Positions 3,135 to 30,310 of a stretch of DNA of 64,000 nt are shown in pieces. The translations under genes and the position numbers were made by a program. Below the pieces are notes generated by a model. The model saw only the letters and a program-made list of their open reading frames with translations, had not been told where the DNA came from and did not search any database. Location: assembly GCA_022842945.1 (NCBI GenBank), contig JALHOO010000002.1, positions 25,030 to 89,029 on the forward strand, read 5' to 3'. The DNA is from Minisyncoccota bacterium. GTDB taxonomy: Bacteria; Patescibacteriota; Minisyncoccia; Phycocordibacterales; Phycocordibacteraceae. How positions within the stretch are numbered: the first letter of the stretch is position 1; each line of letters starts with the position of its first letter.

Positions 3135-3164
3135 GGGAAACGGCGCCCTAAAGCGCCGTTTCCC
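3135..3164 (-). terminator. Hairpin downstream of tRNA-fMet
   Basis: GGGAAACGGCGC-cctaaa-GCGCCGTTTCCC. Confidence 0.7.
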
Positions 3165-3172
3165 TAAATTTG

Positions 3173-3492
3173 TTGCGGGGGCCGGAATCGAACCGGCGTC
3201 TGGAGGTTCTTTTACACTTACTGTTTCCAGCAAGAATGGACTATCCCATGATCCTGAACCAGGACCCTCCCATTATAGTCTCTGAACCTTTCCCGAATTA
3301 CTTCGAGACTTGGCTGCTGATTGCCGAATCTCCCTGTTTTTCGCGCATTCACGCTCATCCTTTCGGATCACGTTGTAGCACAAGGAGCTCTAACGGTATT
3401 CCAGCAATTTAGAGAGTTTTTCCACTACCCGTTACCGGATAGGGTCACGTTGTTCACATGAGCCTCCCGAGGTACCTCTCCTCTACCCCGCT
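3173..3492 (-). tRNA. Initiator tRNA-fMet(CAU), split by an intron (exons 3458-3492 and 3173-3208)
   Basis: Spliced sequence AGCGGGGTAGAGGAGAGGTACCTCGGGAGGCTCAT|AACCTCCAGACGCCGGTTCGATTCCGGCCCCCGCAA folds as a cloverleaf. 1:72 mismatch, G2-C71, C3-G70 and A11-U24 are initiator hallmarks. CCA is not encoded. Confidence 0.92.
3209..3457 (-). ncRNA. Group I self-splicing intron (IC-like, 249 nt, no ORF) at tRNA position 36/37
   Basis: P AAATTGCTGGAA, Q AATCAGCAG, R GTTCAGAGACTATA, S GGGATAGTCC; 5' exon ends in U paired with the guide (UCAU/GUGA); terminal G; GNRA-capped P2 and P9. Confidence 0.93.
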
Positions 3493-3531
3493 ATGCATTT
3501 CTTCACACAAGCGCACGAGCGCTATGTCCAT

Positions 3532-3559
3532 AGAATACGCCACATCGCGTCTTTTGCAA
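3532..3559 (-). promoter_or_regulatory. Promoter of tRNA-fMet
   Basis: TTGCAA-16-TATTCT about 40 nt upstream of the mature 5' end. Confidence 0.55.
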
Positions 3560-3571
3560 GTCCTCTAGAAT

Positions 3572-7985: not shown

Positions 7986-8447
7986 CTAATAGAAGACTTT
8001 GAGACCTCGCTCAACACGTCGGGGATCTGAAGAGGAGCACGAATTAAAACCGTTTGCGTAGATGTTTGTGACACCCGTCTGGTTCTTAAAGACCTGAACG
8101 GTGCCCTGTGTCCCTCCGGTTGCACACGGGATACTAAATTCAGACGTACGGACACCTCCAGACTGCGAGGTAGTAAATCCCGTAACAGGGGCACCAGCGC
8201 AGCGCACCTCGCCTGCCGCATTTCCCTGGTAGTCATAGCGAAACACGTTCATCTTCTGATCCCAGTAGAGCGCACATTCCATAGCAGAGTCTGCCGCATA
8301 GAACGCATACTGCGACTGCCGAGCTGTTGAGGAGAGGGTTACCTGCTTTAGCGCAATATCCAAAAGCGCGAGACCCACAGACAAAAGTACCGAGGTTAAA
8401 ATCATGGCAACAAGGAGCGTAAAGCCTCTGTGTGGAGTATGCATCAT
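7986..8447 (-). CDS. Minor pilin, PilX-like
   Basis: RG|FTLLVAM prepilin site without Glu5; AFYAADSAMECAL. Confidence 0.85.
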   Translation of the reverse strand: MMHTPHRGFTLLVAMILTSVLLSVGLALLDIALKQVTLSSTARQSQYAFYAADSAMECALYWDQKMNVFRYDYQGNAAGEVRCAGAPVTGFTTSQSGGVRTSEFSIPCATGGTQGTVQVFKNQTGVTNIYANGFNSCSSSDPRRVERGLKVFY

Positions 8448-8989
8448 AGCCAGTTGTAGAGACGCTCAGTAATAGTCACACTTCGTGCCTGCCCACGAGA
8501 CGTCCAGCTAACAACAACCGTGAGCATAATCTCAGTACTGGTACTTCCAAGTACCGGTGTGACACGAATGGTGCGTGTGTAGGGTGTCGCTGTTCCGCTA
8601 CCTGCCTGATTGTAGAGATTCCCTGAGCTTAGATAGAGCGGTGGATACGGAGTTGAGGTAACCCTACTAACCGTAAGCTGGGTTGGATCAACCACGCACG
8701 GAGCGGTGACACAGTTTGTAGAGCCTCCCGTGCCATCTACCCCAAACAACCATGAACGACCAGATTGTGTATTCATGAGTACATAGAGGTAGTTGCCGTC
8801 GCGAATACTGCGCACATACTCAACCCCCTCTTGCGCGAGCGAAGACGCGACAAGCTGCTCGCGTGCACTTCTGGACGCATTCAACGACTGCTGTACTGAG
8901 TACAGAGGACCAACCATTGCCGTTACCACCACCGTAACCGCAACGAGGGTCTCTATAAGCGTAAAGCCTTTGTGAGTGCGGTTGATCAT
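8444..8989 (-). CDS. Minor pilin, PilV-like
   Basis: KG|FTLIETLVA; LAQEGVEYVRSIRD. Confidence 0.85.
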   Translation of the reverse strand: MINRTHKGFTLIETLVAVTVVVTAMVGPLYSVQQSLNASRSAREQLVASSLAQEGVEYVRSIRDGNYLYVLMNTQSGRSWLFGVDGTGGSTNCVTAPCVVDPTQLTVSRVTSTPYPPLYLSSGNLYNQAGSGTATPYTRTIRVTPVLGSTSTEIMLTVVVSWTSRGQARSVTITERLYNWL

Positions 8990-9594
8990 AGCTCTATGGC
9001 GCGCTGAGTGGCGCCTGTTTGTATCGAAAAGCTTGAGCTCTCACCTGCATCCGTAACCATAGTACCTGCCACAACAATAGTAACGCTTGGCTGAACAGTG
9101 TCGTTAGTAAGTGGATTACTGTCAGCATCAACACCGCGCACATAGAACCTAAGAGTAGTGATGTCTATTCTTGGATCGGTAAGCGGCACCGCGGTATCTT
9201 CTGTGCAGCTGAGTCCCGTACACTGCCCAATACTTCCATCGTTCTTCAGTATGTACGTGACACGATACTGCGAATCAGCGTCACCATCGCGGCACGTTAT
9301 ACCGTCAGGACAAAAGGATATGGAAGTCCCTCCGCCCACACAGTTCGGAGAACTTGCGTTTCCATTGCAGGCATACTCTCCTCCTGTGCGTATGGCACGT
9401 GCCATGCTCTCAAGAGCAAAGGATAGCGAGGAGGCGAGTTGGCCGTTCGCACGTGCCTGACGGTCAAGACTGATGAGCGTTACGTACGCACCCAGCACCA
9501 CAAGCATAACCATGCTGAATATGCCGAGCGATACAATGAGCTCGAGTAGGGTATATCCTCGTTTTACATTAGTGCGGTTCATTTTGTTGGACAT
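8986..9594 (-). CDS. Minor pilin, PilW-like
   Basis: RG|YTLLELIVSLGIF; LESMARAIRTG. Confidence 0.85.
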   Translation of the reverse strand: MSNKMNRTNVKRGYTLLELIVSLGIFSMVMLVVLGAYVTLISLDRQARANGQLASSLSFALESMARAIRTGGEYACNGNASSPNCVGGGTSISFCPDGITCRDGDADSQYRVTYILKNDGSIGQCTGLSCTEDTAVPLTDPRIDITTLRFYVRGVDADSNPLTNDTVQPSVTIVVAGTMVTDAGESSSFSIQTGATQRAIEL

Positions 9595-10307
9595 CCTGAT
9601 TCTCCCTCGGACAGTACGGACACCTGCCCTACCTTAGAGACCAGTACACACCGCTCTTCAACACCTCCTGGCGTTGAGACGCGGATAACGGCATTGGTAA
9701 GCACAACAACCGATCCGTTGGTGCGCGTACCGAGTATAACGGACTGCGTATTGGGTCGAAGATACGTTATGTCTATAGCCGAGAGGTAGTTTCCATTACA
9801 GCGTTCAACCCCAGCAGTGTCGTTCCCACAGAACCCACTTACTTTATAGTTGTTGTTCAGTGTATAGGTACGTACAATCTCTGACCCTTGCGTCTGCCTG
9901 CAGTCTCCTGGACGCGCCTCAGGCCCCGTACCCACCGTATGTCCAGGACACACGGATACGTTCTGTATGTTCCCTGTTCTTGTGGGATGCACATCTGCAA
10001 AGAGCACGTAGCTTCCTGCTGGAGCTGCGGCGAAGCGCACTCCGTATCCAGCATTCGTGGTTCCGTCAGTAAAGGCTCGACTTGAAATTCCTAGCGCCTG
10101 CGCTTCACGTATGGAGAACGCGACCGTGTACGCCGTGTCCGTAAGGATAAGACTGCGGTTAAACGAGGACTGCCCCACCAGAGTGATGACGGTAATGATA
10201 ACGATGATGGCGAGCACCACCATCATCTCTACGAGCGTAAACCCTCGAGAACCTTGTCGCACGAGGCGATTAAAGGTTTTTAGAATGTAAGCAGTAAGGG
10301 ATTCCAT
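9579..10307 (-). CDS. Minor pilin, FimT/FimU (GspH)-like
   Basis: RG|FTLVEMMVVLAII; IREAQALG; start uncertain. Confidence 0.82.
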   Translation of the reverse strand: MESLTAYILKTFNRLVRQGSRGFTLVEMMVVLAIIVIITVITLVGQSSFNRSLILTDTAYTVAFSIREAQALGISSRAFTDGTTNAGYGVRFAAAPAGSYVLFADVHPTRTGNIQNVSVCPGHTVGTGPEARPGDCRQTQGSEIVRTYTLNNNYKVSGFCGNDTAGVERCNGNYLSAIDITYLRPNTQSVILGTRTNGSVVVLTNAVIRVSTPGGVEERCVLVSKVGQVSVLSEGESGCPTK

Positions 10308-11035
10308 TGCGTAACGTAGGCGAGCAGATAGCCGGCCGCGAGAAAAGGCACGAACGGTACTTCAATACCTATTCTATGGCCTTTGGGCGCTCGCACCAAT
10401 ATACCAATGCCAACAACTGCACCTATCCAAAATGAGAACAAGAGTCCTGGAATCGCGAGCGTGCTGCCAACCAGTGTAGCGAGTGCAAACGCAACCGGCG
10501 CGTCCCCGAGCCCCATGGCACGCCCTCCAGAAAACGCATAGAGCAGAAAGAATCCAAGACCTATGAACCCTGCGATCATGAGTGTCGCACCGAGCAGTTG
10601 CACTGCACTTGAGGATAGAAGAGCGTAGAGCACTGCAAAGAGAATGAGAAGCAATGAACTTGCAGGTGGCACGATGGTATGACGCAGATCGTAGAGGACA
10701 ATGAACGTGAGCGTAGTAAGTGCAAGTAGAAATGGTATGAGAGCAAGAGTGAACCCTATCTTTACATAGGCAATCGCAAACAACGTACCGAGCACTGCTT
10801 CGCTTATGGTGTAGGACACGGGCACCTTTGCCTTACAGGTGCGACACCTCCCCCTTGATCCTATCCATGAGAACACCGGCACCAGGTCCAGCGCTGTTAG
10901 TTCCCTGCTACACGAGTTGCATTGAGATCTCCCTTTAATCCAAGACTGCCCCGTATACAAGCGCTCGGCAATAACTGCCATGAAGCTGGCGAGAATGGCA
11001 CCGAGAACAAAGAACGGTATGACGAAAAGATCCAT
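10280..11035 (-). CDS. pilD: Prepilin peptidase (A24)
   Basis: RSQCNSC and GRCRTC Zn motifs, YDLRH, AMGLGDA, PFVPFL. Confidence 0.93.
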   Translation of the reverse strand: MDLFVIPFFVLGAILASFMAVIAERLYTGQSWIKGRSQCNSCSRELTALDLVPVFSWIGSRGRCRTCKAKVPVSYTISEAVLGTLFAIAYVKIGFTLALIPFLLALTTLTFIVLYDLRHTIVPPASSLLLILFAVLYALLSSSAVQLLGATLMIAGFIGLGFFLLYAFSGGRAMGLGDAPVAFALATLVGSTLAIPGLLFSFWIGAVVGIGILVRAPKGHRIGIEVPFVPFLAAGYLLAYVTQWNPLLLTF

Positions 11036-11070
11036 AATGCTTCTAGTATAACGTCCTTAATAGACATATA

Positions 11071-11103
11071 CGCAAAAAGCTCCGACGTGCGGAGCTTTTT
11101 GCG
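11071..11103 (-). terminator. Intrinsic terminator after the major pilin gene
   Basis: CGCAAAAAGCTCCG-acgtg-CGGAGCTTTTTGCG. Confidence 0.8.
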
Positions 11104-11117
11104 CTTGTGTGTGCGAA

Positions 11118-11564
11118 CTAGTTCTGTGAAGTACACGTTCCACAGGCCCCTGCGCTCTGTGCGCCAGCCGTACCACACTTCTTGCCGGTTGAGTCAACGC
11201 ACCAGAAGGCTGTTGCCATACCTGAAGGGCGTGTTGAAGAAACAGCGTACGCGCCAGCTGCGCCAGTGCACGATACACCCGTTCCAGTACCGTTTGCATT
11301 CTCTGCAGAAGCAATAGCCTGTACAACAGACGCATCTGAACATACCGTTGCGTAGCTTGGAGACGCTGCACCGTCGTAGACGATCTCTGCCTGTGTTGCG
11401 ATAGAGGCAAGGTTCGACTTGATGGAAGCGTCGTTCCCTCGACTACGCGCCGTATTGAGGGATGCGAGTACGACGGAGGAGAGGATACCGATGATGGCAA
11501 TAACGACGAGGAGCTCGATGAGCGTAAAGCCGCGATCTGCCTTCTTAATGTGTCCGAGTGTCAT
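11118..11564 (-). CDS. pilA: Major type IV pilin
   Basis: RG|FTLIELLVVIAIIGILSSVVLASLNTAR; Cys-rich C-terminus (FWCVDSTG); own terminator; alternative start at 11591. Confidence 0.88.
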   Translation of the reverse strand: MTLGHIKKADRGFTLIELLVVIAIIGILSSVVLASLNTARSRGNDASIKSNLASIATQAEIVYDGAASPSYATVCSDASVVQAIASAENANGTGTGVSCTGAAGAYAVSSTRPSGMATAFWCVDSTGKKCGTAGAQSAGACGTCTSQN

Positions 11565-11668
11565 AGAGTCTATAAATGAATTAATGCGCATAATGGGTAA
11601 CTATCCGCTTCTCCACATTGTACGCCACCCTTCTCCCTGTCTCGGTGTCCATGGGGATAACGGGTGGT

Positions 11669-12877
11669 TTACGAAATCGAGCCGGCAAGGTTATAGATTG
11701 GAATAAGCACAGACGCAAGCAGGGTTCCCACACCAAGACCAAGGAGCACAATCATCATAGGCTCGATAAGGTCCACAAGGGTATCAACGGCCGTAGTAAC
11801 CTCGCGCTGGTAGAACTTGGCAAGGGTTGTAAGGATGTTCCCAAGCTCTCCGGTCTCCTCACCCACTCGCACCATTGCGGTCATAATGCCGGGAATTTCT
11901 GCATGCTGAGCTAAAGCATCAGAAATAGACGAACCTCCCTTCACCGCCTCCCCCACCTCAAGCAGAATAGTCTCGTAGGTAGCGCTCCCTACAACTGCAC
12001 CTGTTATCTCAACCGCCTCAACAACCGGCACACCCGACACAAGCATCGTTGCAAAGTTGTCCGCAATGCGCGAAAGGTAGAGCTTCTGATATAGATCGCC
12101 CACATAGGGCACCTCAAGCTTAAGCTTGTCGAAGAAGAGTTTTCCTGCCTCTGTCTGCAGAGAGCGATACACAAAGAATGCGCCAACGCCCATAGCAATG
12201 AGAAGAAGGAATCCGTAGTTAACTAAGAAATCAGATGCGGTAATAACTACCTGCGTATAGACCGGTATTGCCTGTCCTGAGTCCTTGAGGATGGAGGCGA
12301 TACGCGGGATAACCATCGTGAGCATGAGACCCATAACCACGAAGAACACACCGATAACGAACGCCGGGTAGATAAGCGCATTCTGCGCCTTCGACATAAC
12401 CTCGTACGTGCGATCGAGGTAATCAGCAAGATATCCAAAGGTCTCTGAAAGACGTCCCGACTCCTCGCCGGATCGCACCATGTTTACATAGAAGCTTGAG
12501 AATACTTTAGGGTGCCTTGAAAGCGCTTTTGAAATAGGACTTCCTCCCTGCAGATCGTCTGCAACCTGCGTCATAACCTCTGCAAGCGTCTTGTTATCAA
12601 CTTCGCTCGCAAGGAGACGGAAGATGCGAAGCGCTGATACTTGGGCCTCGAACAAAGTCGCTATCTGCCGAGAGAGGATAACCACTTCTTTATTCGACAC
12701 ATGCTTAAGGAAACTCAGCTCAACATTGAGAAGCGACTTCTTCTCAATAGGCTCAATGGAAGAAACGATAAGACCACGGCGCTGGAGCGTAGAGACTGCA
12801 ACATCTACCGACAGGGCTTCAACGGTACCTGCCCGTTCATGTCCATCCTTGTCGAGTGCGTGATAGGAAAAAAGCAT
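11669..12877 (-). CDS. pilC: Type IV pilus platform protein
   Basis: T2SSF repeats, SGEESGRL, YPAF, GEETGEL, LIEP. Confidence 0.95.
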   Translation of the reverse strand: MLFSYHALDKDGHERAGTVEALSVDVAVSTLQRRGLIVSSIEPIEKKSLLNVELSFLKHVSNKEVVILSRQIATLFEAQVSALRIFRLLASEVDNKTLAEVMTQVADDLQGGSPISKALSRHPKVFSSFYVNMVRSGEESGRLSETFGYLADYLDRTYEVMSKAQNALIYPAFVIGVFFVVMGLMLTMVIPRIASILKDSGQAIPVYTQVVITASDFLVNYGFLLLIAMGVGAFFVYRSLQTEAGKLFFDKLKLEVPYVGDLYQKLYLSRIADNFATMLVSGVPVVEAVEITGAVVGSATYETILLEVGEAVKGGSSISDALAQHAEIPGIMTAMVRVGEETGELGNILTTLAKFYQREVTTAVDTLVDLIEPMMIVLLGLGVGTLLASVLIPIYNLAGSIS

Positions 12878-26897: not shown

Positions 26898-26974
26898 GCA
26901 CCCTTAGCTCAGTTGGTTAGAGCACCTAGCTTATACCTAGGCGGTCCTTGGTTCGAGTCCAAGAGGGTGCACCA
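26898..26974 (+). tRNA. tRNA-Ile(UAU)
   Basis: GCACCCT/AGGGTGC acceptor stem, anticodon arm CCTAG-CT TAT AC-CTAGG, GGTTCGAGTCC, A73, encoded CCA. Confidence 0.9.
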
Positions 26975-29839: not shown

Positions 29840-29875
29840 CCCGTTCTCTATTCCTCTTGAGGAATAGAGAACGGG
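29840..29875. repeat. 17-bp perfect inverted repeat overlapping the tmRNA 5' end
   Basis: CCCGTTCTCTATTCCTC-tt-GAGGAATAGAGAACGGG. Confidence 0.85.
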
Positions 29876-30280
29876 GGTGACCGGCTTTGACGGTCCAGTA
29901 CTTTGAGAGACGTGCGACGCGGTGGAAGGATACTGACCACCTAAAAACGTATTCAACCAAACTTGCCAAGAACACTCTTGCAAGCGTAAAGTCGCCTTAC
30001 TTCGGTAAGTCCGATTTTGCGTTCGCTTACGCGTAAAAGCTTCGCGCTTTCGCCTAAGCGACGTTCATACCTCTAGGGTCTCGTAGCTAGGAGTATGGGC
30101 GGAATTCTCTACGAGATCGGTGCCCGCATGCCCAGGCGATGTACTTAAACAACGGGCGTAGGCAGGAACGTTTTCGCTAGCGTTCATACGCTTCTGCTGA
30201 AATCTAAACGTTAGCTACGCGTCGTAGACTCGCTCTTAAAGCTGGATTCGGACGGGAGTTCAACTCTCCCCACCTCCACC
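29873..30280 (+). ncRNA. ssrA: tmRNA
   Basis: 5' GGGGGTGA..TTTGAC; 3' GGGAGTTCAACTCTCCCCACCTCCA with G3-U pair; tag ORF 29965-30036 AKNTLASVKSPYFGKSDFAFAYA*; follows smpB. Confidence 0.93.
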
Positions 30281-30310
30281 GATATAGAACTATGTAGAAA
30301 TACATGGAAC

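Follow-up and report, generated by a model that had tools for sequence, protein, structure and literature searches.

The initiator tRNA gene in the window (the whole stretch of DNA analysed, 64,000 nucleotides) is interrupted between positions 36 and 37 by a 249-nt group I intron with an intact core, comprising P3-P4-P6-P7-P8 and the G-C site of P7; the intron is predicted to splice itself out. From the sequences of the same locus in relatives, the reading that we favour, with reasonable confidence, is that the intron persists as a selfish ribozyme spread by the product of an adjacent free-standing HNH gene through collaborative homing, the nuclease being missing here. In keeping with the first-pass annotation of the window, which judged the class to be probably not new, a 36/37 intron in tRNA-fMet is probably a further member of a class already catalogued. 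What appears distinctive in this case is the surrounding system, in which two ORF-less introns, each accompanied by a partner gene, are rivals for a single essential loop.

The split initiator tRNA gene

Coordinates of the exons, the intron with its helices and the flanking features are given in Table 1. The joined exons form a 71-nt cloverleaf with the anticodon CAU. Nine splice registers were compared, and only 36/37, the site already proposed in the first-pass annotation, leaves the CAU loop intact and gives a U at -1 together with a G at the 3' end of the intron; the other eight were discarded, as none combines these three features. The initiator identity proposed along with the site also stands: the split tRNA has an A1xA72 mismatch, an A11-U24 pair and the stem pairs A29-U41, G30-C40 and G31-C39 (au/GC/GC). 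A purine 11-pyrimidine 24 pair, a feature of bacterial initiator tRNAs, is thus found here together with the 1:72 mismatch and the au/GC/GC variant. The mismatch at 1:72 is described as an initiator feature in PMC5389676, which gives au/GC/GC as a natural variant of the three G-C pairs 29-31/39-41. The second CAU tRNA of the genome is of the elongator type (U11-A24, G1-C72), and an fmt gene was found in the genome at the family cut-off. An Ile2 or elongator identity for the split tRNA was rejected on its initiator-type features and on the presence of the separate elongator CAU tRNA. Isoleucine is served by a tRNA-Ile(UAU) at 26898-26974 of the window (ARAGORN); as this tRNA is present and neither tilS nor an Ile-type CAU tRNA was found in the genome, AUA is probably read without lysidine. 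The CCA end of the tRNA-fMet is not encoded, and a gene of the nucleotidyltransferase family is present in the genome.

Table 1. The split tRNA-fMet gene, its intron and the flanking features (positions in the window)
Feature	Position	Strand	Remarks
Hairpin, 12 bp, just 3' of the tRNA	3135..3164		Terminator-like on the + strand; weak, shuffles give 0.5 such sites
tRNA-fMet 3' exon, positions 37-73	3173..3208	-	A72, discriminator A73, CCA unencoded
Group I intron, 249 nt, without ORF, at 36/37	3209..3457	-	Terminal G = 3209
P9 with GAAA loop, P9.0 before the terminal G	3210..3236	-	
P7 and P8	3238..3282	-	Guanosine-site G-C pair of P7, 3280 with 3239; P8, 3266-3250
P3, P4, P6/P6a	3267..3416	-	P3, 3416-3411 with 3272-3267; P4, 3406-3402 with 3319-3315; P6/P6a, 3314-3286
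P5 with unbranched P5a/b extension	3324..3396	-	A-rich bulge 3341-3337, GAAA loop; arm in 47/69 members
P2 with GUAA tetraloop	3422..3444	-	7/9 pairs change on both sides; GNRA loop in 69/69
P1, exon U33-U36 and two intron bases against the ACGUGA guide	3445..3461	-	U36.G wobble, 3458 with 3448
tRNA-fMet 5' exon, positions 1-36	3458..3492	-	35 nt; A1, A11, U36 at the end; most congeners identical
Spacer to the upstream gene, 79 nt	3493..3571		Weak promoter-like pair 3559-3532; site of the HNH cassette in relatives, empty here

The genome comprises 694 kb in four contigs, is not closed, and is 99.5% complete. No second initiator tRNA gene turned up in the four contigs with ARAGORN, blastn, nhmmer or the tRNA model of Rfam, which agrees with the supposition of the first-pass annotation that the split gene might be the only one. 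Because none was found, translation initiation would depend on splicing, barring a copy in an assembly gap. The unclosed assembly would leave room for such a copy and hence for a dead insertion in a pseudogene, the true initiator gene lying in the gap; we give this reading almost no credence, since the locus is orthologous to that of the relatives, the exons equal those of intron-less relatives and the catalytic pairs are all intact. ARAGORN missed the split gene in the default mode and recovered it with the intron option, so the prediction that standard scanners would miss it holds for default settings only.

The promoter-like pair of the spacer is common to the window and its nearest intron-less relative; a promoter scan of the spacer called no promoter. 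A read run (X1, probably DNA) contains the intron of a relative in unspliced form and no splice joint, and is neutral on splicing.

Several other features of the window and the genome were recorded. A type IV pilin and assembly cluster was recognized from ORF translations upstream of ligA-gatC-gatA (window 7986-12877, minus strand), and a tmRNA that ARAGORN missed was found at window 29873-30281 (Rfam, 107 bits). A tRNA with a CCA anticodon and a long variable arm (G000:C2:120606-120695, minus strand) is additional to the normal Trp tRNA. A 95-nt tRNA whose acceptor stem has eight pairs precedes a mismatched second tRNA-Arg(UCU) (G000:C1:218252-218446, plus strand). An unrelated HNH protein with repeated Cys pairs is encoded just upstream of tRNA-Ser(UGA) (G000:C2:167230-167352, minus strand).

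Structure and class of the intron

The insert matches the group I covariance model of Rfam (RF00028) at 3448-3217 with 67.4 bits (cut-off 50, E 6e-15), and P2-P9, P9.0 and the GNRA loops L2, L5b and L9 were all identified. No ORF of at least 60 aa is contained within it. The first-pass annotation had read the insert as an ORF-less group I ribozyme with a U-G pair at the 5' splice site, a terminal G and GNRA loops, and each of these elements is present. A hand-drawn structure of 73 pairs was compared with 69 of 77 distinct parsed homologues, eight longer or mis-parsed ones being excluded. Pairing was kept in 94.3% of the cells, against 78.4% in column shuffles (0/500) and about 40% in slid controls, and 46 of the 73 pairs change on both sides. 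The six pairs of P7 are invariant in 69/69, while four of the five P8 pairs co-vary. The U.G wobble of P1 occurs at the 5' splice site of all 69 homologues, and in four of them the tRNA has C33 and the guide has a G where the others have A, a compensation across the exon-intron border. L2 and L9 are GNRA loops in 69/69, as is L5b in all 47 members that have the P5 arm. The conservation of the terminal G is not independent evidence, because the homologue search demanded it. Folding of the pre-tRNA gave z = -4.8; no clear P10 was found for the intron.

Class IA introns are characterized by a P7.1/P7.2 insertion between P7 and P3. In all 69 homologues P7 runs into P3 through three bases, and because of this direct joining the intron does not belong to class IA. 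Subgroup IC1 has a branched P5abc with an A-rich bulge, a GAAA loop and P5c, whereas subgroup IC3 has no P5 extension and core words of its own. The intron differs from IC3 in having a P5 extension and shows little similarity to the IC3-like 33/34 introns described below. As for IC1, the bulge and the GNRA loop are present, the arm is unbranched, and it is missing in 22/69 members; the core words presumably resemble those of IC1 rather than IC3. The P5abc-like arm of the first-pass annotation can accordingly be kept as far as the A-rich bulge and the GAAA tip are concerned, but not as a branched arm, no P5c having been found in it. The family offers compact ribozymes with and without the P5 arm at one site.

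A second group I intron of the genome lies in the 23S rRNA gene (L002, G000:C4:1633-1859, 59 bits); kinship between the two was rejected, as they share only a 22-nt core match. The DNA that follows the 23S rRNA intron resembles, by eye, an ORF of the LAGLIDADG type. One member of the tRNA intron family, 640 nt long (L103:406-849, minus strand), holds an opposite-strand LAGLIDADG ORF (Pfam, at cut-off) within the P6 loop.

Distribution and states of the locus

One pattern applied to 185,579 species genomes (GTDB) gave 97 matches. Of these, 79 are 36/37 introns in initiator-type tRNAs (76 complete, 3 truncated), 10 belong to another intron lineage and lie in CAU tRNAs of the elongator type, and 8 are chance matches or intact tRNAs. 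The 79 carriers are labelled as Patescibacteria-group (71), gammaproteobacterial (1) or without taxon name (7). Within the genus, 168 of 201 genomes were matched and 34 carry the 36/37 intron, so that in about one genome in six the initiator gene escapes tRNA scans run at default settings.

The locus was read in the window and in 100 fetched loci, which were chosen, not random. These 101 loci fall into 29 with the 36/37 intron, 53 without an intron, 17 with an unrelated intron at 33/34 and 2 that are cut. The upstream gene order is kept across the fetched loci and the exons are near-identical across the genus; 39 of the 53 intron-less tRNAs are identical to the spliced tRNA of the window. The presence of the 36/37 intron is patchy yet heritable. 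On the host tree (98 loci, three having been dropped for want of gatA) its state requires 26 changes, compared with 25.8 for shuffled labels, and sister species at a host distance of 0.07 differ in it. Distances between introns correlate with those between their hosts (Mantel rho 0.37, 0/2000), with nearest neighbours agreeing in only 11/29, and ten carriers that group together on the host tree also form a clade of introns (support 0.89). Both introns together were seen in none of the 29 fully read 36/37 carriers. The chance of finding no double carrier is naively ~1e-6, and 0.005 in the sole clade where both introns are common, in either case with kin that are not independent. A narrow pattern for a double-intron gene gave nine matches over metagenome contigs, none of them a tRNA. 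A loose pattern for the 5' junction, run on 401 genomes of the order, was overwhelmed by chance matches, as was its reversed control, and was set aside.

These states bear on the proposal of the first-pass annotation that self-splicing gates growth on host attachment. Such a gate, in which GTP/Mg-dependent splicing would yield initiator tRNA only while a host provides nutrients, would draw on the need of group I splicing for guanosine and a divalent metal (PMC3984707), and with a sole initiator gene found, a splicing failure would block initiation. More than half of the loci read have no intron at all, near-identical hosts differ in state, the presence shows no phylogenetic signal, and a different intron can occupy another site of the same gene; no sensor-like element was seen, and in relatives the intron co-occurs with a nuclease cassette and not with a regulatory feature. 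The gating proposal is therefore unsupported, and we regard it as very improbable.

The ten elongator-type records (L042, L049, L055, L062, L070, L088, L096, L099, L120 and L125) come mostly from Bacteroidota. Eight of them have a truncated 5' tRNA half ~165 nt upstream of the split gene, and the DNA between the tRNA copies is near-identical across distant genomes, like an integrated element. Phage CAU tRNAs with 36/37 introns of another lineage were found in L157:945-1576 and in L156 and L158:1269-1573; the tRNA of L157 is initiator-like, and its intron holds an HNH ORF (Pfam HNH_3, E 1e-19).

The HNH gene beside the intron in relatives

In 16 of 30 carriers the spacer that separates the tRNA from the gene upstream holds a divergent, intact ORF of 117-131 aa, and one more has a broken copy. 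The same spacer contains it in none of the 53 intron-less loci and none of the 17 loci with the 33/34 intron. Its product matches PHROGs phage HNH families (E about 1e-22), with Pfam HNH scores mostly under the cut-off, and the Cys, Asp and His residues are invariant; the structural model has a pLDDT of 50, and no relative with a solved structure was found by sequence search. The close subfamily occurs in 20 of the 201 congeneric genomes, namely 19 known carriers and one genome where the contig ends at the 5' end of the tRNA. It adjoins the 36/37 intron in 19 of the 34 congeneric carriers and is wanting in 15. Among 26 independent pairs, 14-15 differ in the same direction, HNH with intron, and none in the opposite one.

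No member of the subfamily was found in the genome of the window, whose spacer lacks the cassette. The closest intron-bearing relatives on the tree do carry the HNH gene. Since the subfamily is absent here, any role of HNH in this genome is historical at best. A supposed cassette remnant in the leader of the window was rejected, its best score being 26 with cassette leaders and 25 with intron-less ones, which is not significant.

Sister HNH genes stand behind fMet genes split at 33/34 in three genomes from other families of the order, and the HNH family is also encoded within two tRNA-Asn 35/36 introns, in the first loop, with a -10-like box of its own. The 35/36 introns in tRNA-Asn(GUU), these two among them, were recorded in L336, L337, L339, L341, L342 and L343, which come from congeners and one other family. 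A sister subfamily of HNH genes occurs in tandem just before intron-less tRNA-Arg(UCU) genes (L288-L295, L315-L332), often overlapping their 5' end, and the leaders of these genes contain the reverse complement of the loop of the adjoining tRNA. Other genes were seen in the same pre-tRNA spacer: a PemK/MazF-type toxin in L191:5450-5854 and an NYN-domain gene in L262:372-896.

A copy of the splice junction in the HNH leaders

In 17 of the 19 HNH leaders a -10-like box precedes the ATG by six or seven bases, and a conserved word lies ~30 nt ahead of the ATG. Leaders were available for all but 4 of the 23 HNH loci. When all 126 nine-mers of the spliced tRNA were scored against the 19 leaders, the best was TCAT|AACCT, which spans the junction (mean 7.95/9, exact in 9/19), and none of 1500 random nine-mers reached its score. 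Shuffling each leader separately, with 17 nt as the target, gave a weak result (mean 10.7 vs 9.3). Distant HNH members have the 33-38 hexamer of their own neighbour tRNA in 18 of 25 leaders (permutation mean 9.3, 0/5000); the 25 are the scorable ones of 38 loci, 16 of them belong to one Arg(UCU) subfamily, and the leaders compared are homologous to one another. Among the minor groups the loop hexamer was found for Gln(CUG) in 1/2, Arg(UCG) in 1/1 and Pro in 0/1; three fMet loci, mis-parsed in this test, were inspected by eye instead. The tRNA-Arg(UCU) genes that distant HNH members adjoin are intron-less and have the loop hexamer intact, which a simple model in which the intron gives immunity leaves unexplained.

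The leader copies and the restriction of the HNH gene to intron-bearing loci have to be weighed against a neutral origin, in which the genus inherited an ancestral intron vertically and lost it repeatedly and exactly to intron-less alleles, the HNH gene being a mere passenger. The correlation of intron and host distances and the ten-carrier clade shared by both trees speak for such a relic, as does the extension of the intron family over several Patescibacteria lineages; co-divergence with the host also fits old vertical descent and loss, and the carriers that want the HNH gene include the window. Descent from a single ancestor, however, cannot yield two different introns that alternate among sister species and never coincide, and a passenger would not be expected to keep its Cys, Asp and His residues invariant, to have the junction copied in its leader or to be found only with an intron. 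We consider a relic unlikely, though well ahead of the gate discussed above.

The 33/34 intron and its partner

The 33/34 introns have no BLAST similarity to the 36/37 introns beyond short core words. In this genus they too have a partner: 12 of the 201 genomes encode a helix-turn-helix protein of 231 aa, in all 12 beside a 33/34 intron. Searches of Pfam, PHROGs and PDB sequences, profile searches and Foldseek returned only helix-turn-helix matches or nothing for this protein. Its model has a pLDDT of 74, falling under 50 over residues 80-112, and gave no Foldseek match at E 0.001; a stretch resembling the LAGLIDADG motif was noticed by eye only. No copy of the anticodon loop was found in the leaders of the partner, the best matches being T-arm words. 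A T-arm-like word is shared by the leaders of the 33/34-side members. Distant homologues of the partner occur at four places in contigs C2 and C3 of the genome (G000) and beside 36/37 introns of other lineages (L033, L037, L043, L050, L057, L058, L089 and others).

Proposed mechanism

By analogy with the group I family, free guanosine would attack after U36; the terminal G would then occupy the P7 site, and joining of the exons would restore the anticodon loop. The comparison of loci suggests the further steps. The HNH protein may read positions 33-38 and their flanks in the DNA of an uninterrupted loop and cut intron-less alleles; repair would then copy the intron across, alone or together with the nuclease gene. 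An intron at 36/37 or 33/34 would break the HNH site and render the allele immune, which would also keep the two introns apart. The junction copy in the HNH promoter may let the protein repress itself. The nuclease gene would later be lost or left behind, as in the window. Spread driven by HNH is suggested by the co-occurrence of the intron with HNH in relatives, the junction copy in the leader, the patchy sites and the lack of a double-intron locus.

The linkage and the mutual exclusion could also be produced by homologous recombination, if tRNA alleles moved together with their flanks as a block and without nuclease drive; near-identical exons and a conserved upstream gene order offer ready homology for this. 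Such shuffling of whole alleles leaves unexplained why the partner belongs to a nuclease family and has the junction copy in its leader, and why related HNH genes copy other tRNA loops and sit in tRNA introns. We find it improbable, more so than neutral descent, and retain collaborative homing with the HNH protein as the preferred reading.

A broader claim, for which we see about even chances, is that Patescibacteria have a chromosomal form of collaborative homing on tRNA genes. The ORF-less introns would be driven by free-standing nucleases next to them, which would read the DNA of the anticodon loop and throttle themselves via a copy of the loop in their promoters; two unrelated pairs (36/37 with HNH, 33/34 with the helix-turn-helix protein) would compete at a single initiator gene and shut one another out, the HNH family would be both free-standing and intron-encoded, and the window would represent a nuclease-less survivor. 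The comparison bears on the old question of how bacterial tRNA introns without a nuclease are spread and maintained. The gene for mobility appears to lie next to the tRNA and outside the intron, where surveys of introns alone would not look, and the copy in the promoter offers a putative prediction of the HNH target.

Comparison with known systems

Bacterial group I introns in tRNA anticodon loops are catalogued by Williams 2020 (bioRxiv 10.1101/2020.01.27.920355). The main text names Leu.3, Arg.5, fMet.2 and Ile2.5, of which fMet.2 and Ile2.5 are the classical types, tabulates 17 new types and notes that metagenomic phyla without names are rich in such introns. The present intron shares with those the insertion in the anticodon loop, the U at -1 and the terminal G, site 5 of the catalogue being 36/37. 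Its geometry fits a class fMet.5Ug, a name that the main text does not use. Partner nucleases are not mentioned in that main text. A literature search, outside which most subscription journals lay, yielded neither a text with the name fMet.5Ug nor one that places free-standing nucleases next to tRNA introns of Patescibacteria.

The intron of the Azoarcus pre-tRNA-Ile(CAU) (Ile2.5Ug, IC3), as described in PMC13168695, has the same site, the same anticodon letters, a short P1 in the loop and the elements P2-P9 and P9.0. It differs in its host tRNA (Ile there, initiator here), in its length (205 versus 249 nt) and in the P5a/b extension, which is found here.

The cyanobacterial tRNA-fMet introns (fMet.2Ug, 33/34) share the host tRNA, and a 33/34 intron was also found among the fetched loci, as stated above; the 36/37 intron differs from them in site and lineage, and its partner in relatives is a free-standing HNH gene, whereas theirs is intron-encoded. 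I-Ssp6803I is the nuclease linked with the cyanobacterial tRNA-fMet intron. In Patescibacteria, Nakagawa et al. are said to have described, in 2025, group I introns at 35/36 of tRNA-Asn and tRNA-Asp. These are alike in phylum and in being group I introns of the anticodon loop, and differ in the tRNA, in the site and in an extension after P7, of which the 36/37 fMet family has none.

I-TevI of phage T4 is described as repressing itself via a target-like copy (15/20) in its promoter region (PMC2988022). Here, too, a target-like sequence overlaps the promoter region of the nuclease gene itself. The present protein differs in being HNH and not GIY-YIG, in being free-standing and in having a copy of 9-13 nt and not 15/20, and its binding is predicted. 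Collaborative homing, in which a free-standing endonuclease acts together with an ORF-less intron, is described in two phages (PMC3984707, PMC2988022). The likeness lies in the ORF-less intron, the adjacent free-standing nuclease gene in relatives and the target that both apparently share; the differences are the location in a chromosomal tRNA gene of a cellular organism, the two rival pairs of intron and partner, the missing nuclease in the window and cleavage that is here a prediction. If true, this reading would take collaborative homing and operator-like copies of a target beyond the phages in which they were described, to a chromosomal locus where two introns are rivals.
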